Positions 28,009 to 64,000 of a stretch of 64,000 nt of DNA are shown one piece after another; positions within the stretch are counted from its first letter, which is position 1; each line of letters starts with the position of its first letter. Origin of the DNA: Elusimicrobiota bacterium (GTDB lineage Bacteria; Elusimicrobiota; Elusimicrobia; UBA1565); assembly GCA_041661185.1 (NCBI GenBank), contig JBAZUV010000001.1, forward strand, positions 224,721 through 288,720, read 5' to 3'. The position numbers were made by a program, and so were the translations under genes. Under the pieces are notes generated by a model. That model did not search any database, was not told the DNA's origin, and saw only the letters and a list, made by a program, of their open reading frames with translations.

Positions 28009-28055
28009 CTGACTATATTAAGGCGTGCTGGTTAGGTTCTCGAATCTGGAATATT

Positions 28056-29339: not shown

Positions 29340-29343
29340 GAAT

Positions 29344-30891: not shown

Positions 30892-30896
30892 AGGGG

Positions 30897-32656: not shown

Positions 32657-32774
32657 CGTTAATCATTCTACTAAGCATCAGCGATCGGGTCAAATTTCTC
32701 ATGCATGAACGGACTTGAGCTGTGCCGGAAACGAAGGTAGCTTGGGGTTGCCCTATAGGGCAAGGAGGCTACAG

Positions 32775-33071
32775 ATGCTTAATGAATCGAATCCGCAGTC
32801 TGATACACCGAAGGTTCTGCGGATCACACTGGCCATGCCGGTCCGCTTGCGGCGCATCACTAACGGCGAGAAGGTCATCTGGCAGACCGGGCCCGATGAC
32901 TGTGGAGTTGAGATCGTCGACGTGACAGACGACGCGCGTGCCCGACTTCAGGAGCTACTTAGAATTCTCGACGACGCCGAGCGTCAGCTACGCAAGCGGC
33001 GAAAAGTTCAAATCCCGTCGGGCCCTAAGACGACGGGGGCAATTACCCACCACAAGAACGAAGGCAAGTAG
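32775..33071 (+). CDS. AbrB/MazE-like small protein (paralog of 27292..27501)
   Basis: LAMPVRLRRITNGEKVIWQTGPDDCGVEIVDV. The 3' end contains the att-like repeat. Confidence 0.4.
   Translation: MLNESNPQSDTPKVLRITLAMPVRLRRITNGEKVIWQTGPDDCGVEIVDVTDDARARLQELLRILDDAERQLRKRRKVQIPSGPKTTGAITHHKNEGK
33006..33044 (+). repeat. att-like repeat R3 (GTTCAAATCCCGTCGGGCCC + TAAGACGACGGGGGCAATT)
   Basis: Same unit as R2. Contains the hairpin CCCGTCG...CGACGGG. Confidence 0.5.
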
Positions 33072-33157
33072 TCGGTAAGCGGGATGTGCGATTTGTGGAA
33101 TTATTCGGAAGCGCCTCGGTGTCCTCGACGAGAAAAATGGGATTGCGCTCCGTCGAG

Positions 33158-33193
33158 AAGTTCAAATCCCATCGTGAGGTGCAGTCGGGGGCA
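33158..33193 (+). repeat. att-like repeat R4 (degenerate: GTTCAAATCCCATCGTGAGG...GGGGGCAA)
   Basis: Degenerate third copy, 70 nt before tRNA-Asp. Confidence 0.35.
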
Positions 33194-33260
33194 AAAAAAC
33201 ACCGGCGCAATTTCTCTTATTATTCCTAGAGAAATTGCGCCGGGTTATCGCCAGAAGAGC

Positions 33261-33339
33261 TGGCGGGGTCGACGGGATTCGAACCCGCGGTCTCCGCCTT
33301 GACAGGGCGGCGTGTTAAACCAGGCTACACCACGACCCC
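33261..33339 (-). tRNA. tRNA-Asp (anticodon GTC), CCA encoded
   Basis: Reverse complement folds as a cloverleaf: acceptor GGGGTCG/CGACCCC, anticodon loop CTGTCAA, T-loop GTTCGAATC. Confidence 0.9.
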
Positions 33340-33433
33340 AAGAAATGAATCTTCCTGAAGTCGATTATAGCACATCCCGGCCCGGGCTTCCTCAAAAAGC
33401 GGGGCGCGATTTCCGCGCCGCCGGCGAAAAGCG

Positions 33434-33616
33434 CTAACGTTCTTTTTGGTCGTCGCGATCCATCATCTCAACGAGTTCGGAAAAGTCCGAGCTGAGGGTG
33501 CTGAAGCGTTCCTCGAGATGCTCCCATTCGGGGTCCGCATCCTTCACTTGGACCTTCTTTGTCGACGAGCGGACGGATTTTTTCGCCGGCTTCGCCGCTT
33601 TTTTCTTGATCGGCAT
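33434..33616 (-). CDS. hypothetical small basic protein
   Basis: 60-aa ORF; lysine-rich N-terminus. Confidence 0.25.
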   Translation of the reverse strand: MPIKKKAAKPAKKSVRSSTKKVQVKDADPEWEHLEERFSTLSSDFSELVEMMDRDDQKER

Positions 33617-33666
33617 AACCTTAGTATAGACCCCGGATAAAATTTCCGCCAGGGGGGACCTGCTTT

Positions 33667-34170
33667 TTACGGCAGGAGGTCCGCATAGGCTCCTTCAAGA
33701 AGGTCTTGACGCCGGATGCCCAGTTCCTTTATAAAACCTTCAGCAATGGCGCGGCCTTGCTCAGGGCTCTGGTCCGGCCGCAGGCAGACTTCGATCTCAA
33801 TGAAGCGGCCCATGGACTCGACCTCATCGAAGTGGATGCGCGTCTGTCCGCACAGGAAAAGGGTCCGCTCTTTGCGCACGACCTTGCCCTGGCCCAAGGC
33901 TTGGGCGAGCAGTCTTCGCATGCCTGCGGCATCGGCCACGGACGACATCTCGAAGGAGGACTGCTTCGGACCCGCGGTGTCGGGCCGCCGGTAGAAGATC
34001 ATATAGCTTTGCGCGTCTTGGCCCAGATCGCGGAGCTTGAGGCGTCCGCGGGAGCATTCGAAGAAGGTGTCTTCCTGCCGAAGCTTCTCCTCGCGGTCGG
34101 CCAAGGCGCGGGCGCGCGCTTGCTGGGCGTCCCAGTCCGCGGCGCGGGCCTTGATCTCGATGTTGGTCAT
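33667..34170 (-). CDS. CYTH-domain protein (class IV adenylate cyclase / triphosphatase-like)
   Basis: MTNIEIKARA start (ExExK CYTH signature). About 167 aa. Confidence 0.75.
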   Translation of the reverse strand: MTNIEIKARAADWDAQQARARALADREEKLRQEDTFFECSRGRLKLRDLGQDAQSYMIFYRRPDTAGPKQSSFEMSSVADAAGMRRLLAQALGQGKVVRKERTLFLCGQTRIHFDEVESMGRFIEIEVCLRPDQSPEQGRAIAEGFIKELGIRRQDLLEGAYADLLP

Positions 34171-34180
34171 GGGGAAAGTG

Positions 34181-34252
34181 TGGGCAGTGCAGGGTTCGAA
34201 CCTGCGACCCCCTCCTTGTAAGGGAGGTGCTCTACCGCTGAGCTAACTGCCC
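34181..34252 (-). tRNA. tRNA-Val (anticodon TAC), CCA not encoded
   Basis: Reverse complement: GGGCAGTTAGCTCAGCGGTAGAGCACCTCCCTTACAAGGAGGGGGTCGCAGGTTCGAACCCTGCACTGCCCA. All four stems pair. Confidence 0.85.
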
Positions 34253-35743: not shown

Positions 35744-35792
35744 GACCCACACCCCAACTCGGCATCACCGAAGGGAACAGCGGGTGGCGGAG

Positions 35793-35863
35793 GGGACGCA
35801 GACCTTCTTCCCGCTCCATTCGTGCGGGTGGAGGGTATGGGGCGGGAAGAAGGTCTGCGTCCC
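35793..35863. promoter_or_regulatory. 22-bp perfect inverted repeat GGGACGCAGACCTTCTTCCCGC / GCGGGAAGAAGGTCTGCGTCCC separated by 27 nt
   Basis: Seen directly in the sequence, 50 nt downstream of bioY. No U-tract. Confidence 0.5.
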
Positions 35864-35915
35864 AGGCCGCCAGGACCCGCCATGAAAATGGGTGAGGCCG
35901 TGATTAAAATTCCCA

Positions 35916-35944
35916 TTGACAGAGTTGCAGAGTTCCGTTAAACT
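35916..35944 (+). promoter_or_regulatory. sigma70-like promoter TTGACA-17nt-TAAACT upstream of the CHASE2 kinase gene
   Basis: Consensus -35 hexamer, 17-nt spacer, TAAACT -10. About 50 nt before the ATG. Confidence 0.55.
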
Positions 35945-35995
35945 CCCAAGATACGCTTTGGCGCACCCGTTTGCGCTGAGGGACGTGTTTTGCCG

Positions 35996-38900
35996 ATGAA
36001 AAAGACTTGGATACTCGACGTGCTGCTCGGACTCGCCGTGTCCCTTTTCGTGGGGGGCTCCTATGTGATGCAGGGAGCTTTCCTGGAGAGCCTGGAACTC
36101 AAGGCTTACGACGCGCGCGCGAAGTTCCGTCAGAGCCTGGAGCCGCCCACGGACGTGGTGCTCATCGCTATCGACGACGACTCCATCGCGCGCATGGGCC
36201 GCTGGCCCTGGCCGCGCACGCGCATCGCCGAGATGCTGGACCTGCTCGTTGCGGCCAAGCCCAAGGTCATCGGCTTGGACATCCTCTACAGCGAGCCCGA
36301 GGTCAACCCCGCCATCGCGGAGCTTGAGAATCTCAAGACGCGCTACGGGGAACTCCTTCAAGGCCGCAACATCGTCCAGAAGAAGGGCGTGGATTTCCAG
36401 AACGAGTTCTCCTCCATGGCGGTCCGTCTGGATACGGACTCCCGCCTGCTGGCCTCGCTGACCACGGCGCAGAACGTGGTCCTGCCCATGTTCTTCTCCG
36501 GCGGCGGCCTGCTGGGCGCCAAGCCCGAGGAGCTCCCGCCCGCGCTCTCGAGCGCGGCGCTCACCGCGCGCGTGACGCGCGCCGAGGCCGGGTTCCAGGA
36601 CGTCGAGGGCGGAAAGCCCGTGTATCCGATCCTTCCCTTCCTTAAAGCTTCGGCCGGCGTGGGACACGTGAGCATCTATCCGGATCTCGACGGCGTGGTT
36701 CGCCGCGAGGTGCCCGCGGTCAAGTACGGCGCGTCCTATTTCCCGTCCTACGCCCTGGCGCTCACGGCCCGCTACCTGGGCATCAAACCCGACGAGATCC
36801 TTGTGACTCCCGGCAGTTCCATCGAGCTGGGCAAGCTCAAGATCCCGCTCGACGAGCAGCAGTCCATGCTGGTCACCTTCAACGGTCCGGACCATACCTT
36901 CCGCTATTATTCCTTCCACGAGGTGCTCAACGGCAAGGTGTCCATGGACGTGTTCAAGGACAAAATCGTCATCCTGGGGCCCTCGGCCGCGGGCATCGCC
37001 ACGCTTTACGTGACGCCCGTGGCGCAGTCCCTGCCTTCCGTGGAGTTCATCGCCAACGTCATCGAGAACATACTGGGCCAGCGCTTCCTCGTGCGTCCGC
37101 CGTGGGCCGTGCGCCTGGAACTGGGGCTCATCGCTTTCTGCGCATTCTTCGTCATGTTCCTCCTTCCGCGCCTGAAGGCCTTGGGCGGCGCGATCATCAC
37201 GGCCCTGCTCTTGGCCGCGGCCATGGGCGCGGGCGGCTGGCTCTTCGTGGAGCGCGGGGAGTGGATCAAGGTCATCTATCCCTGCTTCCTGCTGGCCGCG
37301 GGCTACGTCGTCATCGTGACCAAGCGATTCCTCGTCACGGAGAAGGGCAAGGAGCTCGTGGAGGCCTCTGCCATCGAGACCAACAAGATGCTCGGGCTTT
37401 CCTTCCAGGGCCAGGGCATGTTCGACCTTGCGTTCGAGAAGTTCCGGCTCTGCCCGGTCGACGACAACATGAAGGAGACGCTCTACAGCCTGGCTCTGGA
37501 CTTCGAGCGCAAGCGCCAGTACGGGAAGGCCGTCAACGTCTACAAGCACGTTTCGGCGCACGATCCCAAATATAAGGATATCGTCGAGAAGATCAAGACC
37601 CTTTCTGCCGCGGCCGAAGGCGCGGTGTTCGGCGGCATCGGCCAGAAGGGCGGGGAAGGCACGGTGATGGTGACCGCGGGCGCCACCAAGCCCATGCTCG
37701 GCCGCTACGAGATCATCAAGGAACTCGGCCGCGGAGCCATGGGCATCGTCTATCTCGGCAAGGACCCCAAGATCAACCGGCAGGTGGCAATCAAGACCCT
37801 CATGCTCGAGGAGGGCGGCACTCCCGAGGAGACAAAGCAGATCAAGGAGCGCTTCTTCCGCGAGGCCGAGAGCGCGGGCACGCTGAATCATCCGAACATC
37901 GTGCGCATCTACGACGCGGGCGAGGAGCAGGACATCTGCTACATCGCCATGGAGCTGCTCGACGGCCATGATCTGACGCGCTACTGCGGCAAGGAGAACC
38001 GGCTCGATGCGCTGACGGCCATGGAGTACGTTGCCCGCGTGGCCGAGGGGCTCGACTACGCGCACAACCAGGGCATCATCCACCGCGACATCAAGCCCGC
38101 CAACATCATGCTGCTCAATGACGGCTCCGTGCGCGTGGCGGACTTCGGCATCGCGCGCATCGCGGCCTCCTCGAAGACCGCCACCGGCACGGTGATGGGC
38201 ACTCCTTCCTATATGAGCCCGGAGCAGATCGCTGGACGCAAGGTGGACGGCCGCTCGGACCTCTTCAGCCTGGGAGTGACCCTTTTCGAACTGCTTACGG
38301 GCGAGAAGCCTTTCAAGGGCGGAGACGGCATCGGCACGCTGCTCTTTCAGATCGCCAACGAGCCGGAGCCGGAGCCTTTGCAGATCGAGCCCAAGCTGCC
38401 GCGGCGCGTGAGCGCCATCGTGCATAAGGCGCTCAAGAAGAACGCGGACGAACGCCACCAGAAGGGCTCGGAGTTGGCCGCACAACTGCGGGCCTGCATC
38501 GAGGCCGTCAAGAGCGGCGCCGGCGATGAGGCGCAGACCGAGGAGGTCACGGCTGCGGCGGTTGTTCCTATCGTGGAGGCTGCGCCTGTCGTTGAGCCTG
38601 CGGCCGTCGAAGCTCCAGTTCCTGTCGTGGAGGCCGTGCCGGAGCCGGTCGTCGAAGCTTCTGTTTCGGAATCCACGATCGTTGAGTCTCCCGTGCCGGA
38701 ACCGGCAGCGACTTTTGAGATCCCTGTTCCCGTGCAGGAGACCGCGGCCGTTGACGCTCCCGTTTCGGAAGCCGCGGTCATGTCCGCGCCTGTCCAGGAG
38801 TCCACGTTCGTGGAGGCTCCTGCTCCTGAGCCCACGGTGGTCGAGGCTCCTGCGCCGGAGCCGCAGATCCATCTGCAGCCCTTCGATGTCCCTGCGGACT

Positions 38901-39205
38901 CCGAGCATACAATCGTCTTGGAACTCCCGCCCGTGCCTGCGGCTTCCGCTGAACCCGCGGCCGCGCCGGCGCCGCAGCCCGAGTCCGGCGCGGAGCATCA
39001 TTTCACTTTCGAGACGGACCCTATCCCGCCGCCTTCCGCGGAGATCGAGCTGGGTCCCAGGCCGGGAGGCGGTCTTGTCCGGCCGCGCACGCCCGGAGAG
39101 ATCGCCGCGGCTCTGCCCGGCGAGCCGCCGGCTTCCGCCGCGCCCGAGGAGCCCTTGGATCCGGATGCGACCATCCGGCTCGATCCGCCCGGGAGGAGCG
39201 CGTGA
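35996..39205 (+). CDS. CHASE2 sensor + TM + TPR-like + Ser/Thr protein kinase with Pro/Ala/Val/Glu-rich repetitive C-terminal tail
   Basis: CHASE2 motifs (VVLIAIDDDSIARMGRWPWPR). Kinase motifs GRGAMGIVY, AIK, HRDIKPANIML, DFG and SPE. Tail is (V/A)EAPxPEP-like repeats. Confidence 0.85.
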   Translation: MKKTWILDVLLGLAVSLFVGGSYVMQGAFLESLELKAYDARAKFRQSLEPPTDVVLIAIDDDSIARMGRWPWPRTRIAEMLDLLVAAKPKVIGLDILYSEPEVNPAIAELENLKTRYGELLQGRNIVQKKGVDFQNEFSSMAVRLDTDSRLLASLTTAQNVVLPMFFSGGGLLGAKPEELPPALSSAALTARVTRAEAGFQDVEGGKPVYPILPFLKASAGVGHVSIYPDLDGVVRREVPAVKYGASYFPSYALALTARYLGIKPDEILVTPGSSIELGKLKIPLDEQQSMLVTFNGPDHTFRYYSFHEVLNGKVSMDVFKDKIVILGPSAAGIATLYVTPVAQSLPSVEFIANVIENILGQRFLVRPPWAVRLELGLIAFCAFFVMFLLPRLKALGGAIITALLLAAAMGAGGWLFVERGEWIKVIYPCFLLAAGYVVIVTKRFLVTEKGKELVEASAIETNKMLGLSFQGQGMFDLAFEKFRLCPVDDNMKETLYSLALDFERKRQYGKAVNVYKHVSAHDPKYKDIVEKIKTLSAAAEGAVFGGIGQKGGEGTVMVTAGATKPMLGRYEIIKELGRGAMGIVYLGKDPKINRQVAIKTLMLEEGGTPEETKQIKERFFREAESAGTLNHPNIVRIYDAGEEQDICYIAMELLDGHDLTRYCGKENRLDALTAMEYVARVAEGLDYAHNQGIIHRDIKPANIMLLNDGSVRVADFGIARIAASSKTATGTVMGTPSYMSPEQIAGRKVDGRSDLFSLGVTLFELLTGEKPFKGGDGIGTLLFQIANEPEPEPLQIEPKLPRRVSAIVHKALKKNADERHQKGSELAAQLRACIEAVKSGAGDEAQTEEVTAAAVVPIVEAAPVVEPAAVEAPVPVVEAVPEPVVEASVSESTIVESPVPEPAATFEIPVPVQETAAVDAPVSEAAVMSAPVQESTFVEAPAPEPTVVEAPAPEPQIHLQPFDVPADSEHTIVLELPPVPAASAEPAAAPAPQPESGAEHHFTFETDPIPPPSAEIELGPRPGGGLVRPRTPGEIAAALPGEPPASAAPEEPLDPDATIRLDPPGRSA

Positions 39206-48757: not shown

Positions 48758-50557
48758 ATGGATTCTAGGATACTCGACGTTCTTTTCCTGCGGCCGGGCG
48801 GACGATTTCCGACGGTCGATCATGATATCGGTTCCGCTTGGGATGCGGTGTCTTGCGGATCGCATCAAGTGCGCAGGCACGACTCGAATTATATTTTTTG
48901 GAAGATCCTGTTATCGTGTCGAGCGAGTGAGTATTTTTTCGGGCGAGGCTTGGCTTCCTTTGCATTGCGATGGGTATTCAAAAAGACTTTTGGGGTTTCT
49001 ATCGAGGAGAGCGCGAGTCGTGCCGAATATTGTTCGGGAATGCTCCAGGATGAATGCACGTATCGTTCGGCGGATGGATATCTCGCCGCAGTCTGCGGCA
49101 TGATCGCTCATCTGAAGAGACTCAATGCCAGCCAGAAAGAATATGCCTTTTCCTTGGGGGCGGGCGTCTGCGTGAATCTCGTCGACTATCGGAAAAGCGA
49201 CAGCATCGTTGAATATGCTCGACGGGCATTTAAAGAGAAGAATTTCTTGTCGCTGCTTGCGGAGTCTTCTTTGGACGGGGCGGGGGATGCCGCTGATCTG
49301 GTTTTCCTTTCGGCGCATTCTCCTGAAGAGCTGCTTTTCGCGGCGCTTTTGGCGCTGCATTTGAAGGCGAGGAATCCGCGTGCATATATTTGCCTTTATG
49401 AGCATGGATATGAAAATTTCTCGCTTCAGCCTCATCTGAGCGAACTTGAGAGGAATCGTCATTTCCTCGGCATTTTTGAGAGCATATTGGTGGGGCCTGC
49501 GGATGTCCCGGAGATGACTGCCGGCATCGTGAAGTGCGCTTCTTCGGACGTCTATCCTTGCGGCATTCTTCGGCGGGCCGATGTCCCAGGTCTTGGGACG
49601 GCCCCCCAGGAGAAGGGGGCGTTCCCTCGCTCGCGGCCGCTACCGACTTTTTCGCCGATGCCTATCCTGTGGACGCGTTTGAATCAGGAACGTTGTTATT
49701 GGGGGCGATGCTCATTTTGCGTCCAGAACCATAAACATGGGGGAGGGCCGGTCGGAGGATCCGGCGGGATGGAAGATTCGTTGAGGAGGCTTCAGACTGC
49801 TCGGGAGGCGGGCTATCGGCATGTCATACTTTCCGACGAGGCCTTGTCTCCTGGAAGATTCAGGGAATTGTCGGCAAGGCTTCTGCTGCTGAAGCTGGAT
49901 CTGCGATGGGCGTGCCGAATCCGGTTCGATGGAGAATTTCGGAGGGAGGATTTCTTCCGGGCAAAAGAGGCGGGCTGTTTCGAGGCCCTTTTGGGGCTCG
50001 AGAGCGTCTCTCCACGAGTCCAGCGGCTTATGAATAAGTATCCCGAGAATCTCGAGCGGAAGCATATCGAGGATATGCTGGCGTGGATGCGTGAGGCGGG
50101 GCTCGGGAGTCATGTGAATATTTTGGGAGGGTTTCCAGGCGAGACGGTCCAGGAGCTTGAGGATACCGTCGGCTTCGTTGCCGCTCATGCGAAAGTGACG
50201 CCGAATATGACGCTTACCTGCAACTGTTTCGAGCTTTTCCCTGGATCGGAGGTCGCGGAGGATCCCAATCGCTATGGGATAGAGGTAAGGCCTTTCTCTG
50301 GGGATGTCGCCCGGGGGCTTTCATTCTCCGTGCGGGGAGAAGGGAACGGCGGCTCGCGGGACCAGCGTCCCTATGTGGATGAGATGCGGCAGCGATTGTT
50401 TTCAGAGGCTGGCTGGGGGACTTTGCTGAATACCGAAGAGGGTATGGCTGCGCTCGGTTTATATATGGATTCCGGCCACGGAGCGGTATTCAAATCCATG
50501 CTGGACAATGTATTCGAAGCCTCAATAAAGGGGAGCGCATGCCGACGATCCTCTTGA
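48758..50557 (+). CDS. B12-binding-domain radical SAM protein (class B-like)
   Basis: CYWGRCSFC cluster (RCSFC context; CX4CX2C spacing) and ILGGFPGET motif. N-terminal Rossmann-like region. Lower GC than the flanks. Start uncertain. Confidence 0.65.
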   Translation: MDSRILDVLFLRPGGRFPTVDHDIGSAWDAVSCGSHQVRRHDSNYIFWKILLSCRASEYFFGRGLASFALRWVFKKTFGVSIEESASRAEYCSGMLQDECTYRSADGYLAAVCGMIAHLKRLNASQKEYAFSLGAGVCVNLVDYRKSDSIVEYARRAFKEKNFLSLLAESSLDGAGDAADLVFLSAHSPEELLFAALLALHLKARNPRAYICLYEHGYENFSLQPHLSELERNRHFLGIFESILVGPADVPEMTAGIVKCASSDVYPCGILRRADVPGLGTAPQEKGAFPRSRPLPTFSPMPILWTRLNQERCYWGRCSFCVQNHKHGGGPVGGSGGMEDSLRRLQTAREAGYRHVILSDEALSPGRFRELSARLLLLKLDLRWACRIRFDGEFRREDFFRAKEAGCFEALLGLESVSPRVQRLMNKYPENLERKHIEDMLAWMREAGLGSHVNILGGFPGETVQELEDTVGFVAAHAKVTPNMTLTCNCFELFPGSEVAEDPNRYGIEVRPFSGDVARGLSFSVRGEGNGGSRDQRPYVDEMRQRLFSEAGWGTLLNTEEGMAALGLYMDSGHGAVFKSMLDNVFEASIKGSACRRSS

Positions 50558-51441
50558 CGGGAGGGACAGGCAATGCCGGCAGCCATGTTGCACGGCAGCT
50601 TCTTGCCCATGGATATGAAATTCTTGCCGTGTCCCGGAGCAAACCGGATTTCCATTGCCGTCATCTTCGTCGAGACCTTCGCGATTTAGAGGGGATTTCT
50701 TCCGAGATCGAATCGACTGATGGGATCATTCATTTGGCGAGTCCGCGCAGCCAAGACGCGAGGGTTACGGTGGAGGAGGATGTCCTTTCTTTTCATATTA
50801 TCTGCCGATACTGGCGAAAAGGCAGCCTGATCTTTGCCAGTAGTCAAGTGGTTTATGGCGTTGCAGTCGGGGACATATGTGAGGACTCGGCGTACCATCC
50901 TTGCGGATGGTACGATTTGGGCAAGATCATTAATGAGCTCCAACTGCAGATGGCGTGCATGGAATCCGGTCGCGGGGCGGGAGTAAGTTTGAGGATACCG
51001 ATCCTCTTCTCTACTGGGAGGAGGAGAACGGATCGTCAGTTCATGACAGATATTCTGGAGCACTGCCGCAAGGGCGGATCATTCGCTTTTGAGAGTGAAG
51101 CGGACTTATATGCGAATGGGACCTCTTTTATTGGGGAAGAGGATTTCGCAGCGGCCGCCGTTGCTGCTCTGCGTATCGACCGGACAGGCGAGTATAATCT
51201 CGCCGGAGGATTTTGCACGTGGAAAGAACTTATCGAATGCGCGCACCGTTTTCTGGGTTCGAGGCCGCGTTTTATTCTTCGCAGGGGGGGGTATAGCATG
51301 CCGGATGAGCTGCGCCTCCCTAGTTCGCGTGCGCGGTTGGACTGCTCGAAATTTCAGAGGGCAGCAAATTGGATCCCGAAAGAAGCGTTAGATATGCTTG
51401 TCGCCCGCTATTTCCAGGAAGATCAGCTGGAGAATGGATGA
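50539..51441 (+). CDS. NAD-dependent epimerase/dehydratase family (SDR) protein
   Basis: ILLTGGTGNAGSHV Rossmann motif. Confidence 0.75.
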   Translation: MPTILLTGGTGNAGSHVARQLLAHGYEILAVSRSKPDFHCRHLRRDLRDLEGISSEIESTDGIIHLASPRSQDARVTVEEDVLSFHIICRYWRKGSLIFASSQVVYGVAVGDICEDSAYHPCGWYDLGKIINELQLQMACMESGRGAGVSLRIPILFSTGRRRTDRQFMTDILEHCRKGGSFAFESEADLYANGTSFIGEEDFAAAAVAALRIDRTGEYNLAGGFCTWKELIECAHRFLGSRPRFILRRGGYSMPDELRLPSSRARLDCSKFQRAANWIPKEALDMLVARYFQEDQLENG

Positions 51442-51478
51442 GTCTTGCGGGATGTTTGGGCGGAAGGGGATAAAACGC

Positions 51479-52885
51479 ATGTTGCTGAGATCGAAATGGG
51501 TCCATCATTATCAGCGAGGGAGCGATGTCGTCTTGTTTCATGCGCTGACCGGGGAGGCTCTATTTGGGAGTTCAGCGCTGCTGTGTTTGTTCCATTCTTT
51601 CCCGGGTCAGGATGTCCTGTCTCAGGGACATCCCGGATTTAAGAGAGGGGAGAGCGATGCTGTCGTCGGTCGGTTGTGTTCTAAGAAAATGCTTGTCCTT
51701 TCGCCTTCGGAAGATGATGGGATGGCGGATTCGTTGCTGGAGAAGGCTGATGGATTTTTCAAAGGGAGGAATAGGCTGTCCCTTCTTTCTACGGATGCAT
51801 GCAATCTTCGGTGCAGATATTGCTATGTGCGCAATAAGGATCACTCGCCGACATTGATGACGGTGGATACTGCGAGGCGTACGGTCGATTACTTCTTCCG
51901 TTTGACAGGGCGACAGGGGGATGAGCGAGAACTGCACTTTCACGGCGGAGAGCCATTGCTCAATCTCCCGGCGGTATTCGCCGCTGCCGATCGCGCGCTG
52001 GAATTGCAGGGGGAGGAGTTCTCGGCGGGGCTGTCGCTTTCCCTGACGACGAACGGGGTCTTGTTGGATGAGGAGGCGGCGCGTCAGTTTGCGAAAAGGG
52101 GGGTCCGAATCTCTGTTTCACTCGATGGGCCTCCCGATGTTCATGACGTATATCGGCGCTCGAAGGAGGGGCAAGGCAGCTGCGAGCAGGCAAGACGCGC
52201 GATAGAGCTCTTGCGTGCTGAGGGGGTTGACGTGCAGATTGCATGCACGTTGACGCCGGAGGTCCTCTCGAGTTGGGACAGGGTCGTGAGCTATTTTGTC
52301 GATGAGGTGGGCGTCGATTCTGTAATAATAGGGACGCTATTGCTGTCTTCTTCCGGAGAGAAAGGAATGTCTTCGGAGATGTCCGAGGGGAGGTCTGCGG
52401 GGGCGGCCATTCGGAGCGTCATCGGTGCGGCCGAGAAGAATCGCTTCGAGGATATAGATATTCTGCCTCGGATTAGAGCGTTTTCGAAGAAAAGGGTTTA
52501 TTTGAAATCGTGCGCGGCGACCGGCGGACAGATGGCTGTCGATCCCGCCGGGAATATAGGGCCGTGCCATGGGTTGTTGGGGGAGTCTCGGTATTTCCCG
52601 CGGAATGTTTTCCGAGACTATGATGAGGATATCGGCGCAAACGAAATGTTTGTAGAATGGAGTCGTCGTAGTCCGTTGCGCTTTCCTGTTTGTCGGCGAT
52701 GTCCAGCCATCGGCATCTGCGGCGGAGGATGTCCTGCATCTGCTTTGCGGGACAGCGGGGATATTTGGGCGGTCGATCGCAGGACATGCTGGTTGGTCAA
52801 GCCGCTTCACGAGTGGCTTATGTGGCGTGTCTTCGATCAAGACGAGAGGCGTTCTGAGGGCGACGTTCGATTGGGAAGGAAATGA
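51479..52885 (+). CDS. radical SAM/SPASM-domain enzyme with N-terminal PqqD-like RRE (peptide-maturase-like)
   Basis: CNLRCRYC (CX3CX2C). C-terminal CHGLL...CRRCPAIGICGGGC auxiliary cluster motifs. N-terminal KWVHHYQRGSDVVLFHALTGEALF resembles a RiPP recognition element. Start could be 51398 or 51452. Confidence 0.75.
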   Translation: MLLRSKWVHHYQRGSDVVLFHALTGEALFGSSALLCLFHSFPGQDVLSQGHPGFKRGESDAVVGRLCSKKMLVLSPSEDDGMADSLLEKADGFFKGRNRLSLLSTDACNLRCRYCYVRNKDHSPTLMTVDTARRTVDYFFRLTGRQGDERELHFHGGEPLLNLPAVFAAADRALELQGEEFSAGLSLSLTTNGVLLDEEAARQFAKRGVRISVSLDGPPDVHDVYRRSKEGQGSCEQARRAIELLRAEGVDVQIACTLTPEVLSSWDRVVSYFVDEVGVDSVIIGTLLLSSSGEKGMSSEMSEGRSAGAAIRSVIGAAEKNRFEDIDILPRIRAFSKKRVYLKSCAATGGQMAVDPAGNIGPCHGLLGESRYFPRNVFRDYDEDIGANEMFVEWSRRSPLRFPVCRRCPAIGICGGGCPASALRDSGDIWAVDRRTCWLVKPLHEWLMWRVFDQDERRSEGDVRLGRK

Positions 52886-58422: not shown

Positions 58423-58686
58423 GGGCGTCCTCCTGTGAAGTCTCCGGCTGATGCGAAGATTATATCTTACTGCGTATCGGCTGGACCCCGGCTTCCGCCG
58501 GAATGACGGCGGGAGCTTCAACCGGCTGACCTGTTGCCATTTGCTTTGGCGGATGGGTCTTAGGGCCCACATTTATATGGGTCCAAATAGTCGTGTCCCC
58601 CGTCATAAAAAAGCCCTTGCAGAAACGGAACCCTTCGCCAATACTTATTATTACTGCCTGCATAACGTATGCAGGCATCAATAAGA

Positions 58687-61600
58687 ATGGAAAAAATGCG
58701 CCGTCGCTCTGCGCTGTTTCGAGGCATCGCTCTCCTGCTTTCCATCTGCATCCCGGCAGGGAGCATGGCTCCCTTGTGGGCCCAGTCCGGAGCCGCTGCG
58801 CAGGCCGCTTCAGGCGAAGCCGTTGCCCCTGTCAACGTCCAAGGAGTCGGTTCCGTTGTCGACGCCGTTCAACCGGTTCCTCTCGATCTCGGCCTCGGCC
58901 TCCAACCCGGAGCGGTCCTTCCGGTCTCGGCGCTCAAGATTCTCGCAACACAGGCCCTCCAGCCGGCCGCATCCAAGAAAGGGCTGGCCTTGCCCGCTGC
59001 TTCGATCCTGAAGACGGCGCAGCAGCCGTCGGAGACCGGCCGTGCGCAGGAGACGGATGCCGCGGATGCTCAGCCGATGGACAGCCCTCACCGCGTGAAA
59101 ACAGGAGCAGGCAAGTCCGCAGCAAAGAAGCGGAACGCTTCGCACGCGGCAACGATGCCGGCGGGTAGGGACCAACAGCCTGCGCCGGCAGAGGCGCAGC
59201 CGGGTCATAAGCCCGCGTCCGGGCTGGAACTTCTGACCCAGGCGGTGAATGCCCTCGCCGGCGCAGCCAAGAGTCCCTCCTCCATGGCCGGGAAGGCCCT
59301 TTTAGACGAGACGTTCGCGGGAGAGCGGCGTCAAACCGCCGAGCTCGACGGCATCCCCGGTTTCATCGACGGCGCGCAGCTTAAGTCTCTACTTCTCCCG
59401 AGCGCCCGCGTCCAGGACCCCGAAACAAAGGCCGTCCTTGAAACGCTGGGCCTGACGCGCGCGCGCTTCAAGCAATTGGCCAGGGCCCAGGCCGATTTCC
59501 ATCAGGCGATGCTCAAAGAGGAGCCCTCTCTCCAGGAAACGGGGTACTCGCTCAGGACGCAGAAGCGCTTTTCCAGGGCCGTTCTCGCGCTGGCCCGCCG
59601 GCTCGCGCAGGAAGGCGTCGGCGACCCTCTCGGGAAAGCCCTTCTGCTCTCCTGCCAGAGCTATTACGGCGACCCTGTCGATTCCGGCGTCTTGCTTCAT
59701 AAGCGCGAGCGTTTCCTGATGCTGATCAAGAGGCACTTCGGCGGCTTCATCTCAGCCGCGAATATCGCGACGGTCGAGCGTTTCAGCCGGACGATGACGG
59801 CGGCCCAGGAGAGCGTCTTGGGCATCCCGGCCGCCTCTTTCTCCGGCTCGCCCGTCTTGATGCGGGCGGCCCGCGCGCTGATGACCGCCAATCCCGTCCT
59901 GCTCAAACCGGCCTCGGGCAGCGATGCGGCGCTCATGGACGCCTTGCGTTCGGTGAGCAAAAGCCTCGGCATCGAGCTCTCGACCTTCTGGTGTCATCCG
60001 CTTGAAGAGCAGCAGCTCGTGGGCTACAAGGTCCCCCGGAGCGATTCGGAAGGCTGGGTGTTCGGTCAGGCCGAACTCATCCGGCTCATCGCCAAGGCGC
60101 GAAGGGAGCCCGGCAAGCGCTTTGCCATGCTCATCAAGAACGTGGAGGCCATGGACCCCGGCCTGCGGCTCTCCCTGCAGGAGGCCTTGAACATGGGAGA
60201 GCTCAACGACCGCGAGCTCGGCGTCGTCGAGATCCCCTCGAACCTCCAGTTCATCTTCACCATGAACGAAGGCGCGGATCTTTCGGATGAATCCTTCCAG
60301 GACAGGGTCTCGGTCAAGAGCATCCAAGCCGGAGCGAATGCGAAGCTTGCGGTCCCGGTCTTCCAGCTGCCCAAGGGGGTGACGGAATCGAACTACCTCG
60401 ACCATATCTCGATCGGACAGGCGGCCGGCGCCTGGCCGGTTCTCTCGCTGGCCGGCTACGACCTGCTGCTGGCCCCGGAGTTCTCGGATCAATATCTCAT
60501 CACTCGGAATAGTGTCCAGGATCGGCTCTTCCAGAAGGCCGGCTTGGTCCTCGATTTCGAGACGTTCCGCCTGCTCGCGGCCATGGCCTGGGCGCGGAAG
60601 AAGCATCTTCCCATCCTCCGCATCGAAGGGCCCACGGGTTCGCGCAAGACCTTCTCCGCGGCCTCGCTGGCCCGGCTCACGGGCAGCCGCTTCTTCTCCA
60701 ACCCCGTCAATGTGGATACGGGGCTCAGCGATTGGATCGGACGCTTCAAGCAGGACAAGAGCGGACGCTACCGCTTCCACGCGGAGACCGCTTTCAAGGA
60801 GCGCGTCGAGAGCGGCGGCGTGGTCGCCTTGAGCGAGCTCAACACCTTGACCGACCACAACGACAAGGCCGGCTTGGCGTGGTGGCTGACCCAGATCGCG
60901 GAGACCGAGCCCGACGCCGACGGCTATAGGACGATCCGATTGACGGACATCCCCGCGGCCGAGGGAGAAGAGGTCCCGGTCATCCGCGTCCATCCGCAGA
61001 CGCTCATCGTCGTGGACGTCAATCCTGAGGGCGAGTACAGCGTCCGAGGCGCGATGCCCGAGGTCTTCAAGGAGCATACGCCTTCCTTGACCGTTTCCCC
61101 GCTGGTCAGCGGGCTCGACGCGCGCAGGGAGGCGGAGAAAACGGCGCTCAACCTGCACGCGGAGATGAATCTCAAGCACGGCTGGACTCCCAGGTCTGGA
61201 GGGGAGAAGATCCCCGGCTTGAAGGATGCGGCGCAGCGCAAGGCCTTGGCCAAGCGCCTCGTGGACGTCTTCTACCGCGTCTCTGTCGGCCAGGTCCGGG
61301 GGGAGTTCGGCTGGGGCGAGCACCGGGTCTTCTCGATCAGGGAGTTCAAGCGGATGTGCCAGGACGTGCTCTCCGGCTTGCGCCAGGGACGGACCGAGGA
61401 CCAGGCGCTGGCCCAGGCGGCCTATACCCATCTGGCTTCAGGCTGGGAATCTCCCCAGGACCGCGGCCGCGTGCTCGAACTCCTCGAATCCGAATTCAAG
61501 CTCAAGGCCGTGCAGCCCGATATGGTCGCCGCGGTGCAGGATCAGCTCATGGAGAAGGGCCGGCCGCTTCATCTGCGCGTCGCGCCTGAGACCGATCTGC

Positions 61601-64000
61601 GCAGGGAGCTCGAAGCCCTTCGCGCGGCCTTGCCCGACACGGACATCTCGCTGGTCACCTTCACCGATGAGACCGACCGCTTCCAGCTGGAAGGGGACCT
61701 TGTCCCGGTCGGAGACGGCAGCCGCCTGGATTTCGGGCACGGGATCTTCGGGCGGCTGATCCAAAAGGCCCTCGGCCGACCCGACCGGAAGGTCCTCTAC
61801 GTCTTCGACGACGCGCACAATCTCAAACCCGAGGAGATCGTTGCGGCCGACGAGTTCTTCCAGACCGGCGAGCTCCAGCCCGCTTCGCTGGGAAAGACCC
61901 TGCGCCTGCCGGCCAATGCGAACATGCTCTTCATCAGCCGGACCGATTCTCCGCTGCCATGGGCGGCCGCCGAGCGCTCGCGCTTCGTGGAGATGGTTCT
62001 TTCCAGGGACGAGGACTGGCTGGTCCGCACGGTCCGCGCCGCCTTCGAGCAGGCTTCCACGCATTGGCCCTCCGCCTTGGCGGACCTGCTTTCCCGGTGG
62101 ACGCTCGACCTTCCGGAGGGCTGGTCCGAGGCCAAGGTCTTCCGCTGGGTCCAGAACACGGTCCAGGCGCTCGGCAAGAGCGGGCGTGAAAACTTGGCCG
62201 AGGGGATCGAGGATGCTCTGCGCGACAACCTTCTGATGGCCGTGCCCTCCAGCATGAGGGAATCGATGCTTTGGCGATGCATGACGCCCATCCGGCGGCT
62301 TCTCGGAACGCAGGACGCAAAGAGGAGCGCTTCTCCTCTTCGGCGCTTGGCCGGCTTTCAGCAGGAGTCCGCGGCCGCCTCCGACAGGATGAGCCAAGCT
62401 CTGAGCAAGCTGCGGAGGCTGCTCGGTGCCGCCGCCGCGGACCCTGCCGGGCAGGAGACCGATGAGCCGGCTCTCAAGCCGGGCGATATCGTCGAGACCT
62501 ATGAGGATTCCGGAGCCCTGCCTTCCGGGATGCACGCCAAGGCCCTGGCCAGGACGCCGGACGGTCGGCACATTCTTCTGGCCGAGGAAGACAGGATCGA
62601 ACTCCTGCGCAAAGACGAGACAGGGGCCTTCCGGAAGGTTTGGAGCCATGAGGTGGAGAACGCCGATCTCGTGGCCCTGAGCGACGATGCGGGTATGCTG
62701 GTCGCGTCAGGGAGATTCAGCGGCTTCAAAGCCTTCAAACTCGAGGGAACCGATTATCGAATGATCAGCGACATGGGACACGGCAAAGGTCCGGTCACTG
62801 CATTGGCCCTCACCCCGGACGGCAAGACCCTTGCCGCGGGATTCTTCCACAAACTCATTCCGTATGCATGGGACGGGAACGGCTATAAGGAACTTCTTGA
62901 CAGCGGCCTTGGCAGCGGCGTGACTTCGGTCGGGATCACGGCGGACGGAGGGACCATCGTCGCCAGCGGGAAGTCGCATATGCTGTATGCCTTCCGGCGA
63001 AAAGGGGGCGATTTCGTCCACGACTGGCAGGATGAGTTGAGCGGCGAGCGGATGTCCACGGCGGTCTCTCCGGACGGGAAATATATCCTGAGCGGCAGCG
63101 GCGACGGGAGCGCGAGGCTCATGGTTCAGGATGAGTCCGGCCGACAGGCCGTCTGGGAGGAGGAGTCCGAGAGCAAGATCGTCCATGTCTCCCTCACTGC
63201 GGATGCCGGGCATCTCCTGCTCGTACATCTGGAGCCGGGCGGAAGCAGGATTCGGCTGCTGCGCTTTAAAGGCATCGAAGCGGGGCGACGCGTTTACGAG
63301 ACGATATGGGAAAAGCGGGTCTCAGGGTCCGTCCGGACGGCCAGTCTCGCTCCCGACGCCGGGAGCATCCTTATCGACGGAGAGGTTCGTCTATTCGAGC
63401 CCGGGCATGTGTTCATCAAGGATGAAGGAAGCGCCGTGCTCCTGGCTTCCGACGCCAATATCCGTCGGAACGAACTTCCTGTCAAGGGACTCCGAAAGCG
63501 CGGTTTTGAGGCGCGCGGCAAAGACTTGGAGGCTGCCCGCCAAGAGTATCTCTCGGCTTGGGCCGAACAGAGGAGCGCGCTTAAAGAGATGGGGAGCGTG
63601 CTCGAACGGGACGCGCAGGAATTCCTCTGGGAGCGGCGCAAGCCCGGCGAGCTCAAGCCCCTCGACGTCGCCAAGCCGATCGGCCCCGCCGTGCTCGTGG
63701 ACGTGATCGAACTCGGGCTCAAGCCTTCTCAACTGCGCATGTCCCCGGACGGCCTGCGCATCCTCGCGGCAGTGGAAAAGACGCTCTACCTCTTTGAGAG
63801 GGCCCGGACGGGGCTGCCTTTCAAGGAAATGTGGCGCAAGGATTTTCCCGAAGAGATCGGCGCGATCGCCATGACGTCGGACGGCCGGACCCTCCTGGCG
63901 GGCATCAATCCCAAGAAGGACGCCTGGAGCAACAAGCACAGCAAGGCCTTTGCGTTCCTCCAGAGCGAAGGAGGCTACGAACAAGTCTGGGAGAAGGACT
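58687..64000 (+). CDS. giant secreted protein (more than 1770 aa; 3' end outside the window): signal peptide, disordered Ala/Pro/Gln-rich region, three tandem degenerate AAA_5 (MoxR/dynein/midasin-like) modules, WD40/beta-propeller repeats
   Basis: Hand translation is open from 58687 to the window end. It is absent from the ORF track only because no stop lies inside the window. Degenerate P-loop EGPTGSRKT; Walker-B-like ALSELN and VFDDAHN; sensor-like FIFTMNEG and LIVVDVNPEG. Repeats TPDGKTLAAG and SPDGKYILSGSGDGSARL. Confidence 0.7.
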   Translation, partial: MEKMRRRSALFRGIALLLSICIPAGSMAPLWAQSGAAAQAASGEAVAPVNVQGVGSVVDAVQPVPLDLGLGLQPGAVLPVSALKILATQALQPAASKKGLALPAASILKTAQQPSETGRAQETDAADAQPMDSPHRVKTGAGKSAAKKRNASHAATMPAGRDQQPAPAEAQPGHKPASGLELLTQAVNALAGAAKSPSSMAGKALLDETFAGERRQTAELDGIPGFIDGAQLKSLLLPSARVQDPETKAVLETLGLTRARFKQLARAQADFHQAMLKEEPSLQETGYSLRTQKRFSRAVLALARRLAQEGVGDPLGKALLLSCQSYYGDPVDSGVLLHKRERFLMLIKRHFGGFISAANIATVERFSRTMTAAQESVLGIPAASFSGSPVLMRAARALMTANPVLLKPASGSDAALMDALRSVSKSLGIELSTFWCHPLEEQQLVGYKVPRSDSEGWVFGQAELIRLIAKARREPGKRFAMLIKNVEAMDPGLRLSLQEALNMGELNDRELGVVEIPSNLQFIFTMNEGADLSDESFQDRVSVKSIQAGANAKLAVPVFQLPKGVTESNYLDHISIGQAAGAWPVLSLAGYDLLLAPEFSDQYLITRNSVQDRLFQKAGLVLDFETFRLLAAMAWARKKHLPILRIEGPTGSRKTFSAASLARLTGSRFFSNPVNVDTGLSDWIGRFKQDKSGRYRFHAETAFKERVESGGVVALSELNTLTDHNDKAGLAWWLTQIAETEPDADGYRTIRLTDIPAAEGEEVPVIRVHPQTLIVVDVNPEGEYSVRGAMPEVFKEHTPSLTVSPLVSGLDARREAEKTALNLHAEMNLKHGWTPRSGGEKIPGLKDAAQRKALAKRLVDVFYRVSVGQVRGEFGWGEHRVFSIREFKRMCQDVLSGLRQGRTEDQALAQAAYTHLASGWESPQDRGRVLELLESEFKLKAVQPDMVAAVQDQLMEKGRPLHLRVAPETDLRRELEALRAALPDTDISLVTFTDETDRFQLEGDLVPVGDGSRLDFGHGIFGRLIQKALGRPDRKVLYVFDDAHNLKPEEIVAADEFFQTGELQPASLGKTLRLPANANMLFISRTDSPLPWAAAERSRFVEMVLSRDEDWLVRTVRAAFEQASTHWPSALADLLSRWTLDLPEGWSEAKVFRWVQNTVQALGKSGRENLAEGIEDALRDNLLMAVPSSMRESMLWRCMTPIRRLLGTQDAKRSASPLRRLAGFQQESAAASDRMSQALSKLRRLLGAAAADPAGQETDEPALKPGDIVETYEDSGALPSGMHAKALARTPDGRHILLAEEDRIELLRKDETGAFRKVWSHEVENADLVALSDDAGMLVASGRFSGFKAFKLEGTDYRMISDMGHGKGPVTALALTPDGKTLAAGFFHKLIPYAWDGNGYKELLDSGLGSGVTSVGITADGGTIVASGKSHMLYAFRRKGGDFVHDWQDELSGERMSTAVSPDGKYILSGSGDGSARLMVQDESGRQAVWEEESESKIVHVSLTADAGHLLLVHLEPGGSRIRLLRFKGIEAGRRVYETIWEKRVSGSVRTASLAPDAGSILIDGEVRLFEPGHVFIKDEGSAVLLASDANIRRNELPVKGLRKRGFEARGKDLEAARQEYLSAWAEQRSALKEMGSVLERDAQEFLWERRKPGELKPLDVAKPIGPAVLVDVIELGLKPSQLRMSPDGLRILAAVEKTLYLFERARTGLPFKEMWRKDFPEEIGAIAMTSDGRTLLAGINPKKDAWSNKHSKAFAFLQSEGGYEQVWEKD

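Follow-up and report, generated by a model that had tools for sequence, protein, structure and literature searches.

A giant Elusimicrobiota gene encodes a probable single-chain six-AAA+ machine with midasin-like architecture

Introduction

Single-chain rings of six AAA+ modules, as found in dynein, midasin (Rea1/MDN1) and RNF213, are regarded as eukaryotic inventions from the one-module MoxR proteins of bacteria, and the six-module chain has been treated as a eukaryotic development (PMC3495828, PMC5100056). Here I describe a giant gene that begins at position 58687 of a 64,000-nucleotide stretch of DNA from an Elusimicrobiota bacterium (contig JBAZUV010000001.1 of assembly GCA_041661185.1, positions 224,721 to 288,720 of the forward strand). 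This whole stretch is called the window below, and the gene runs on past its end. It is proposed, with a probability of about 0.75, that the open reading frame (ORF) in the window is the N-terminal 49% of a 3,614-residue single-chain AAA+ machine with the architecture of midasin.

Midasin is best described for Rea1. A helical N-domain precedes AAA1, and AAA6 has no small domain, the N-domain standing in its place; AAA2 to AAA5 are functional ATP sites, AAA1 and AAA6 lack Walker B, and the arginine finger for ring site i comes from module i+1 (PMC6286127). The substrates Ytm1 and Rsa4 and the partner Rix1 belong to the maturation of the eukaryotic pre-60S ribosome (PMC6286127). In prokaryotes, Zhang and Aravind described a widespread three-gene operon of MoxR, vWA and transglutaminase-like (TGL) proteins, predicted to serve membrane-proximal, ATP-dependent protein processing (PMC3495828). 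Kaur et al. (2020) described MoxR-vWA systems with beta-propellers, which are multi-gene systems having a single MoxR module and effector domains (PMC7159879).

Results

A giant gene that continues past the window

A sequence-only reading of the window had pointed to a frame open for more than 5.3 kb up to the window end, and had explained its absence from the ORF list by the lack of a stop codon within the window. Both statements hold. The frame 58687-64000 (+ strand) is open throughout (1,771 codons), its nearest in-frame stop lies 7 codons 5′ of position 58687, and run-off at the window end is the sole cause of the omission. All nine motif strings quoted in that reading were found in place: KPASGSDAA (residue 407), IKNVEAM (483), FIFTMNEG (522), GPTGSRKT (648), ALSELN (714), LIVVDVNPEG (773), VFDDAHN (1039), MLFISRTDSP (1080) and SPDGKYILSGSGDGSARL (1461).

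It was found that a public contig, JBAYGF010000001.1 (GCA_041666825.1), has the window sequence, with identity over 15,305 nt, and carries the rest of the gene beyond position 64000. The gene is 10,845 nt long on this contig and ends at a stop codon at virtual window coordinate 69540. Neither an internal stop nor a frameshift, the flaws that the sequence-only reading had feared, is present in the gene on this second contig. The full-length product, P0002 (3,614 amino acids, from an Elusimicrobiota metagenome-assembled genome, MAG), matches the window product with 100% identity over 1,768 residues. Since the identical contig continues the frame to its stop without interruption, and since homologs exist across a whole family, the frame is a real gene and not a chance open frame. 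The full protein is publicly labelled only "AAA family ATPase" (NCBI) and "MoxR-like ATPase/WD40 repeat protein" (IMG). A 3,271-residue paralog, P0008, is present in the same assemblies as P0002.

Order of parts in the full-length protein

Sequence and profile mapping gave the order of the parts; the coordinates of those in the window are listed in Table 1. In the N-terminal half, a signal-like N-terminus, a low-complexity spacer, a helical N-domain, AAA1, a small beta connector, AAA2 with its lid and AAA3 with its lid follow one another. Next come two units of a prelude and a 7-bladed propeller (propellers A and B), and then a small conserved beta domain bearing FKPRYGEKPYYFAAD…NFKGRWYPTRHKL. 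AAA4 and AAA5, each with a lid, AAA6 without one, an acidic linker and a vWA domain complete the chain. The sequence-only reading had counted three modules; this is right for the window, but the three are AAA1-3 of six, with AAA4-6 lying downstream and two of these having good ATP-site motifs.

The blades that had been taken for a C-terminal WD40 region are indeed WD40-like. Pfam WD40 is matched at E 2.8e-10 (40.7 bits against a threshold of 27), designed WD40 propellers in the PDB are matched at E 1e-22, and a blade map gives two sets of seven blades with a period of about 43 residues. The [ST]xDG motifs of propeller A lie at 62554, 62680, 62812, 62938, 63067, 63196 and 63349. The C-terminal placement, however, did not stand: the propellers are internal, in an insertion of about 800 residues between AAA3 and AAA4, and the window ends within blade 2 of propeller B.

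At the true C-terminus, the acidic linker is followed by a vWA domain whose MIDAS is intact. AAA6 extends to residue ~3065, and low-complexity acidic sequence sets in at residue ~3075. The linker is 321 residues long and rich in Gly, Ala, Glu, Ser and Asp (G47 A42 E36 S32 D28). The residues of the MIDAS, namely D-x-S-x-S, G-T/N and T-D-G, are kept without exception in 13/13 members. In the PDB, the family vWA profile matched vWA domains and integrin I-domains (E 4e-7); the midasin MIDAS domain was not among these matches. Near the other end of the chain, residues ~30-236 are rich in Ala, Pro, Gln and Ser by composition, in agreement with the disordered Ala/Pro/Gln-rich stretch noticed earlier.

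AAA+ fold of the modules

Are all three modules of the window real AAA+ folds? In the window half, Pfam matched module 2 only (AAA_5, E 0.004), and AAA_lid_7 ("Midasin AAA lid", threshold 22.7 bits) was matched by the lid of AAA2 at 23.3-24.7 bits. In the full protein, the AAA_5 matches are AAA2 and AAA6. Single-sequence scans of modules 1 and 3 with Pfam and NCBIfam gave no match. These two modules are homologous to each other (HHalign probability 96% with two sequences and 98.4% with deep alignments). HHalign with two sequences found no relation of module 1 or 3 to module 2, and with deep alignments the probability between the two classes represented here (classes A and B, defined below) was still below 6%. 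A pooled profile of modules 1 and 3 had only marginal matches in the PDB (ClpB, ClpC and midasin, E~0.02). Because the single-sequence scans and the HHalign comparison between the classes found nothing, the AAA+ nature of class A was taken from AlphaFold2 and Foldseek and from midasin profiles.

The halves AAA1-3 and AAA4-6 were predicted apart from each other with AlphaFold2, the first run covering residues 240-1252 of the window product (1,013 residues) with a 19-sequence alignment. The AAA1-3 model (mean predicted local distance difference test, pLDDT, 83.9; predicted template modelling score, pTM, 0.78) contains three beta-alpha-beta cores. Each core has the strand order and the two beta-hairpin insertions, at helix 2 (H2) and pre-sensor 1 (PS1), of the MoxR/midasin/dynein clade, and beta-hairpins at these two positions are predicted in both halves. 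In a Foldseek search of the PDB with this model, the top 50 matches were dynein motor domains (E 5e-22 to 2e-19), with template modelling (TM) scores of 0.49-0.58 over ~1,200 columns. One of the matches, 7mi3, is a sub-reconstruction limited to dynein AAA2-AAA3-AAA4 (TM 0.51/0.44). With such TM scores over 1,013 residues, all three modules therefore superimpose as an arc. The AAA4-6 model (pLDDT 77.6, pTM 0.78) matched dynein arcs at E 3e-27.

Profiles of midasin AAA1-6 were built from 14 eukaryotic midasins among the search matches. In HHalign, AAA1 aligned to midasin AAA1 at E 9e-10, AAA5 to midasin AAA2/4 at ~3e-7 and AAA3 to midasin AAA1 at 3e-5. While the sequence alone is ambiguous, the structure is decisive: as modelled, modules 1 and 3 are real AAA+ folds. 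The three tandem AAA_5-type modules of the sequence-only reading are borne out by these models and by the matches of module 2 to AAA_5 and midasin.

Two alternating classes of modules and their ATP sites

The hidden Markov model (HMM) of module 1 finds module 3 (E~1e-37) and module 5 (1e-5 to 1e-10) in every full-length member, and that of module 2 finds modules 4 and 6 (1e-20 to 1e-36). HHalign probabilities are 96-98% within class A (AAA1, AAA3 and AAA5; scores 60-95), 98.6-100% within class B (AAA2, AAA4 and AAA6; scores 100-294) and below 6% between the classes (scores 15-24). At the level of sequence profiles, the six modules were thus shown to split into two classes that alternate along the chain.

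Motif statistics were collected from 12-24 homologs. Class A has neither the Walker A lysine nor the acidic pair of Walker B; the Walker B position reads K-N in AAA1, E/D-N in AAA3 and R-N in AAA5. In the window protein, AAA1 has no P-loop (KPASGSDA) and reads LIKNVEAM at Walker B, and AAA3 likewise has no P-loop (APETDLRR) and reads YVFDDAHN at Walker B. In the AlphaFold2 model, KPASGSDA and APETDLRR occupy the P-loop position after strand beta1. Class A has kept an invariant arginine just before strand beta5: SFxDR of AAA1 in 24/24, AExSR of AAA3 in 23/23 and F[NS]RW of AAA5 in 13/13. In the window protein, the arginines of AAA1 and AAA3 are R540 and R1099. Just before strand beta5 is where AAA+ proteins have their arginine finger. 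From the secondary structure of the models, the invariant arginine of class A is predicted to be at this arginine-finger position.

Class B, on the other hand, retains the Lys-Thr of the P-loop and the Walker B glutamate. AAA2 has GP[TS]G[VL]GKT in 22/23, AAA4 has G.PG.GKT and DEG in 11/12, and AAA6 has GE[PT]G..KT, with DEAN in 13/13. The window protein keeps the motifs of AAA4 (GDPGSGKT / VDEG) and AAA6 (GKPGGIKT / LLDEAN). Its AAA2 has the P-loop GPTGSRKT, ALSELN at Walker B and DVNP at sensor 1. The Gly-to-Arg change in this P-loop is unique to the window protein in the family, and its codon (CGC, 60643-60645) is one base away from GGC; AAA2 of this protein is probably impaired. The degraded P-loops and Walker B sites of the window half had been seen correctly in the sequence-only reading. 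Their degeneracy is of two kinds: in modules 1 and 3 it is a conserved design of the family, while that of module 2 belongs to this protein only (1/23). As the finger of a ring site comes from the following module, the class B sites of AAA2, AAA4 and AAA6 would therefore be completed by AAA3, AAA5 and AAA1, respectively.

Nearest relatives in profile and structure searches

In profile searches of the PDB, the AAA1-3 family profile matched midasin at E 7e-20 and nothing else below 0.004, and the single sequence of AAA2 matched midasin at E 1.4e-6. The AAA4-6 family profile matched midasin at E 3e-39 (138 bits), with the whole of AAA6 aligned to Rea1 AAA3; among MoxR-class structures, NorQ scored best with this profile (E 3e-5, 25.6 bits). 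By these profiles, midasin is by far the nearest solved relative. The sequence-only reading had allowed that profile searches might fail to support the AAA_5 fold; instead, profiles, AlphaFold2 and Foldseek all support it, and of the likeness to dynein and midasin that it drew from the concatenated modules, midasin was recovered by the profiles and dynein by the structure search.

The likeness to midasin extends to the whole chain. Midasin is also one chain with a helical N-domain (a modelled domain in the bacterial protein) and six AAA_5-type modules. It too has no small domain after AAA6, where the bacterial model shows one short helix after beta5 and then acidic disorder, and its C-terminal MIDAS domain likewise follows an acidic (D/E-rich) flexible region. 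The two also have in common the midasin lid family of Pfam and an odd/even similarity of modules. The modules of midasin itself alternate in HHalign, with scores of 217-277 for odd-odd, 227-329 for even-even and 110-213 for odd-even pairs (e.g. P0104).

The dynein motor shares with the bacterial protein a single-chain ring, a mixture of active and degenerate modules and a tolerance of large insertions. It is the best structural match of both predicted half-rings (E 5e-22 and 3e-27), at TM 0.5-0.58 and 10-15% identity. The structural match covers the ring arc only. None of the dynein-specific (DHC) families was matched in Pfam scans, no stalk, microtubule-binding domain or buttress is evident in the bacterial protein, and dynein, unlike the bacterial protein, has no vWA domain. 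In RNF213 (mysterin), only a minority of the modules bind ATP. RNF213 is a giant E3 ligase whose core of six AAA modules resembles that of dynein (PMC7311170). It is a single-chain six-AAA ring like the proposed bacterial one, but it is eukaryotic and has an E3 ligase module instead of a MIDAS domain.

A rare family of giant proteins

A word-indexed search of 5.8 billion proteins found one partial homolog, P0001 (Elusimicrobiota MAG, 43% identity). The sequence-only reading had recommended a search for orthologs; an exhaustive profile search of 1.84 billion representatives gave a family of 49 proteins at E<=1e-30. About 25 proteins cover the whole core, and most of these are 3,000-6,900 residues long. 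All 13 full-length members have six modules, the motif before AAA4 and a C-terminal vWA domain. When 185,579 species-representative genomes were scanned for the invariant pattern GG[VL][VI]ALSE[LM]N, 15 loci came up, all in MAGs, which belong to Elusimicrobiota, Omnitrophota, two bins labelled Planctomycetes, one bin labelled Bacteroidota and two unclassified. Omnitrophota and Elusimicrobia are likewise the source of the giant relatives at greater distance, with eukaryotic midasins ranking below these. The family is thus a rare one, all of whose known members come from uncultured bacteria. A full-text literature search for bacterial midasin-like or six-AAA proteins found no description, and the giant-gene literature on Elusimicrobiota and Omnitrophota that was examined makes no mention of six-AAA midasin-like proteins.

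The unit of prelude and propeller is repeated 1-6 times among homologs in the slot between AAA3 and AAA4, which, as read from these sequences, acts as a variable cassette site. In P0007 (2011-2053), P0010 (1077-1131) and P0011 (2139-2243), the slot contains 2 or 4 transmembrane-like helices. Between AAA6 and the vWA domain, many relatives have a transglutaminase-like core, which in P0003 and P0014 scores 28.5 bits with Pfam Transglut_core (threshold 23). The segment containing it is ~450-500 residues long and lies where midasin has its linker; the window protein and its paralog have the acidic linker in its place. P0017 and P0019 have an HExxH motif between AAA6 and vWA, without Pfam support. 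Pfam gave no match on the HExxH slot of P0017 or on the long N-terminal extensions of P0006 and P0013.

Could the protein be a single-chain version of the MoxR-vWA-beta-propeller "ternary" conflict (immunity) systems of Kaur et al. (2020)? MoxR-type AAA, vWA and beta-propeller are the component types of both (PMC7159879). As in conflict systems, relatives differ in their accessory domains and in how many propeller cassettes they have, and one genome has two paralogs. The described systems, however, have one MoxR module and separate genes (PMC7159879). Moreover, the window protein has no recognisable effector domain, its neighbourhood is neither mobile-looking nor conserved, and neither PADLOC nor any NCBIfam ternary-system model gave a match. 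I regard this explanation as improbable. NCBIfam and PADLOC place the protein in no curated system, and membership in a defence system was rejected on the lack of a PADLOC match.

The N-terminus and localization

The N-terminal segment (MEKMRRRSALFRGIALLLSICIPAGSMAPLWA/QS) contains, after MEKMRRR, the most hydrophobic 19-mer of the whole protein, and its N-flank has a net charge of +3. Each of three gene callers places the start elsewhere: 58687 (3,617 residues), 58696 in NCBI (3,614 residues) and ~58774 in ENA (3,588 residues, after the hydrophobic stretch). The G+C content at the third positions of the first 20 codons favours no start codon. A hydrophobic N-terminal segment with a net-positive N-flank is present in at least nine members. 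Six of these, including the window protein, have no further transmembrane segment before the core and, by sequence rules, would be exported, or anchored with the bulk outside. The homolog P0001 is called from a GTG amid a hydrophobic stretch (L001, 814-871), and an in-frame ATG 19 codons upstream adds MRPNSPHPRLRQGMTLVLCVSLVLA; its start is probably mis-annotated, and the upstream ATG would restore a signal-like N-terminus. The paralog P0008 has no N-terminal hydrophobic segment.

Other members have transmembrane blocks on both flanks of the core and 2 or 4 transmembrane helices in the AAA3-AAA4 slot. An even number would keep both half-rings on one side of the membrane, which points to a membrane-tethered rather than a soluble secreted machine. 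The positive-inside charge bias of the transmembrane-bearing relatives is small, with conflicting net charges. As for the secreted protein with a signal peptide that the sequence-only reading had suggested, the signal-like N-terminus is upheld by hydropathy, by charge and by its recurrence in the family, whereas secretion is not established, given three starts and conserved ATP sites.

If export is taken at face value, the protein may be a secreted, largely ATP-independent scaffold of pseudo-ATPase AAA units in which the propellers and the vWA domain serve as extracellular adhesion modules, or, as a variant, a giant effector delivered into another cell. This would suit the six members mentioned above and the signal-like N-terminus, with its positive n-region, of at least nine members. 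All three P-loops of the window half are degenerate in the window protein, and vWA and beta-propeller domains are common in extracellular adhesins. In addition, one study reportedly links giant genes of Omnitrophota to the breakdown of cell walls by predatory bacteria (bioRxiv 10.1101/2023.11.21.568195). On the other hand, AAA4 (G.PG.GKT, DEG) and AAA6 (K-T, DEAN) are conserved both in the family and in the window protein, implying selection for nucleotide use. The periplasm has no ATP, and export would conflict with these conserved sites. The start codon is also ambiguous, the ENA call leaving out the hydrophobic segment, the paralog lacks such a segment, and the even transmembrane count in the slot together with the flanking blocks fits a membrane tether. 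The scaffold is therefore judged unlikely. That a machine which seems to depend on ATP should have a conserved signal-like N-terminus is odd, and is the main unexplained feature of the family.

Other features of the locus

The 5′ neighbour of the giant gene is a rubrerythrin gene in divergent orientation. Farther upstream are genes for a urocanase, an RNase T-like exonuclease and a CHASE2 cyclase and radical-SAM genes; YajQ and MotB/OmpA are also among the neighbours. The giant gene has an intergenic region of its own (264 bp) on its 5′ side, and a simple sigma-70 scan of this region found no promoter. At 58655-58677 lies a perfect 10-bp inverted repeat (tgcctgcata-acg-tatgcaggca), which ends 10 nt before the first ATG of the giant gene and has no T-run after it. 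This could be an operator or a hairpin in the 5′ end of the mRNA. Directly 3′ of the stop codon and outside the window (L002, 20846-20965), a long inverted repeat (GGGATGGAGATCCTCTTCCCGC … GCGGGAAGAGGATCTCCATCCC) is likely to be a terminator hairpin.

This genome encodes several giant repeat proteins. On the contig that carries the giant gene, about 8 kb 3′ of it (L002, 29159-30845), another giant gene, of 3,850 amino acids, consists of Kelch-type beta-propeller repeats. Within the window, a second very large ORF (16405-24714, - strand; 2,769 amino acids) lies inside a stretch of 68-70% GC. Its domains (GT2, glucoamylase-like, and the supersandwich and catalytic domains of GH94) are those of a cyclic beta-1,2-glucan synthase, a known kind. 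The region 28000-34000 has a low GC content (48-55% vs ~63% elsewhere), with tRNA-Asp at 33261-33339 (-) and tRNA-Val at 34180-34252 (-); it could be an island beside tRNA genes. Two radical-SAM genes and an epimerase gene at 48758-52885 have a lower GC content (0.54) and an unusually strong GC skew (+0.19 to +0.20). A 1,078-residue ORF at 35765-39001 (-) has no Pfam match at E<=1e-4 and is overlapped by a 1,071-residue ORF on the + strand, so that either strand may be the coding one.

Table 1. Parts of the giant gene that lie in the window, with their positions and the basis of each assignment
Feature	Position	Strand	Basis
Signal-peptide-like N-terminus	58687..58782	+	Hydropathy, charge
Ala/Pro/Gln/Ser-rich low-complexity spacer	58783..59403	+	Composition per 100-aa window; not conserved with homolog P0001
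N-terminal all-helical domain, about 10 predicted helices, preceding the ring	59404..59850	+	AlphaFold2 model residues 1-160, pLDDT mostly 80-93; conserved across 19 homologs
AAA1 large domain, class A	59851..60330	+	AlphaFold2 beta1-alpha-beta2...beta5, H2 and PS1 hairpins; HMM/HHalign link to AAA3 and AAA5
Small beta-rich connector (GVTESNYL... motif) and helix into AAA2	60331..60522	+	AlphaFold2 strands 335-355, helices 371-399; GVTE.NY conserved
AAA2 large domain, class B	60523..61095	+	Pfam AAA_5; midasin matches
AAA2 helical small (lid) domain	61096..61527	+	Pfam AAA_lid_7 "Midasin AAA lid domain"; AlphaFold2 helices 572-717
AAA3 large domain, class A	61528..62010	+	AlphaFold2 strands 722-726, 796-802, 839-846, 862-865; HHalign to AAA1 98.4%
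AAA3 helical small (lid) domain	62011..62430	+	AlphaFold2 helices 872-1012
Helical prelude and beta-propeller A, 7 WD40-like blades	62431..63480	+	Pfam WD40/propeller families; PDB designs; blade map
Helical spacer/prelude before propeller B (…LEAARQEYLSAWAEQRSALKEM…LKPLDV)	63481..63720	+	Read from sequence
Start of beta-propeller B, blades 1-2 of 7; gene runs on past the window	63721..64000	+	Blade map; full-length P0002 and contig

Discussion

How might such a protein work? The six modules would form a single closed ring. It would have three composite ATP sites, each made of a class B module and the arginine of the next class A module, in a division of labour like that of alpha3beta3. In the window protein, where AAA2 is probably crippled by the P-loop change, AAA4 and AAA6 would be left as the working sites. 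ATP-driven movements of the ring may be passed to the tethered MIDAS domain, which may grip an acidic residue of a protein ligand and pull on the ligand or remodel it. The propellers may offer a docking platform for a substrate or an adaptor. Because many relatives have a transglutaminase-like core between AAA6 and vWA, the family looks most like the prokaryotic MoxR-vWA(-TGL) system for remodelling or degradation, fused into one chain and multiplied six-fold. The MoxR/vWA pairs NorQ-NorD, CbbQ-CbbO and RavA-ViaA and the YebA-type operon have, as here, AAA_5 modules with helix-2 and pre-sensor-1 hairpins and a vWA partner with a MIDAS, and the third component of the MoxR-vWA-TGL triad is present in the bacterial relatives. 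MoxR systems, however, have one AAA module per chain, form homohexamers and use separate vWA and TGL proteins, while here six diverged modules, half of them pseudo-ATPases, are fused with the vWA domain.

Several findings weigh against a midasin-like, ATP-driven machine. In a 6 × 6 HHalign matrix against midasin AAA1-6 there is no diagonal: the class B modules match all six midasin modules without preference (E 1e-8 to 1e-15), AAA1 and AAA3 favour odd midasin modules, and AAA5 favours even ones. The helical linker of midasin (stem/middle/top, ~1,700 residues) is absent. The ATP competence of two of the sites is uncertain, since Walker B of AAA2 is Ser-Glu, with Ser for Asp, in 23/23, and the second glycine of the AAA6 P-loop is replaced in 12/13. 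Export, as predicted from the signal-like N-terminus, would deprive the machine of ATP. Finally, the gene neighbourhoods, which the sequence-only reading had also proposed to search, were compared at three loci and nothing in them is conserved, so the context gives no functional clue. Against orthology in particular, the odd modules of the bacterial protein lack both Walker A and Walker B and the even ones retain them, whereas AAA2-5 are functional in Rea1. The bacterial protein also differs from midasin in its two beta-propellers between AAA3 and AAA4 and in its signal-like N-terminus, and its relatives in their transglutaminase-like domain. Because the midasin linker is absent and there is no one-to-one correspondence of modules, the protein is called midasin-like in architecture and probable mechanism, and not a shown ortholog.

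Two explanations of the likeness were weighed. One is an independent, convergent concatenation, in which a MoxR-vWA(-TGL) operon was fused and a dead-live AAA pair was multiplied three times, and in which the resemblance to midasin is analogy on top of shared MoxR-clade ancestry; I would give it slightly less than even odds. It accounts for the transglutaminase-like core of the relatives, which is typical of the MoxR-vWA-TGL triad (PMC3495828), and for modules far more alike within classes A and B than between them, as expected from the triplication of a pair. The lack of module-to-module correspondence with midasin and the presence of NorQ, GvpN and McrB among the weak matches also speak for it. 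It is harder to reconcile with midasin scoring more than 100 bits above MoxR-class structures, and with the loss of the AAA6 lid, the N-domain and the odd/even alternation, all of which are shared with midasin.

The same shared features are the strength of the other explanation, namely that the Elusimicrobiota/Omnitrophota family is a true prokaryotic sister of eukaryotic midasin, or a surviving relative of its ancestor, the ring of three odd/even pairs, the helical N-domain in place of the AAA6 lid, the acidic tether and the MIDAS having been present in the common ancestor. Midasin is by far the closest solved relative, the domain order is the same with an N-domain and no AAA6 lid in both (PMC6286127), midasin modules alternate as well, and AAA1 and AAA3 of the bacterial protein lean to the odd ones. 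Yet the cross-matrix lacks a clean diagonal, with AAA5 leaning to even modules and class B to none, the linker is missing and the pattern of ATP sites differs (PMC6286127), and the scores may be inflated by summing over modules. I consider this lineage relation doubtful. If it were true, the architecture would predate eukaryotes or would have been exchanged with them, and the single-chain six-module ring would have arisen in prokaryotes rather than "early in eukaryotic evolution". With dynein regarded as the sister of midasin, the family would also be the first outgroup from prokaryotes with which the origin of both the midasin and the dynein motors could be rooted and reconstructed.

With either origin, the giant gene represents a new bacterial variant of the midasin/MoxR-vWA plan, with an unusual ring in which pseudo and active modules would strictly alternate. 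For the origin of single-chain rings, a bacterial six-AAA family provides either a route that can be tested or a striking case of convergence. Its three alternating pseudo-modules, which appear to keep only the arginine, make it a natural experiment in the minimum number of ATP sites per ring. As a smaller system without the linker, it may also serve to study how a tethered MIDAS domain is coupled to the movements of the ring.

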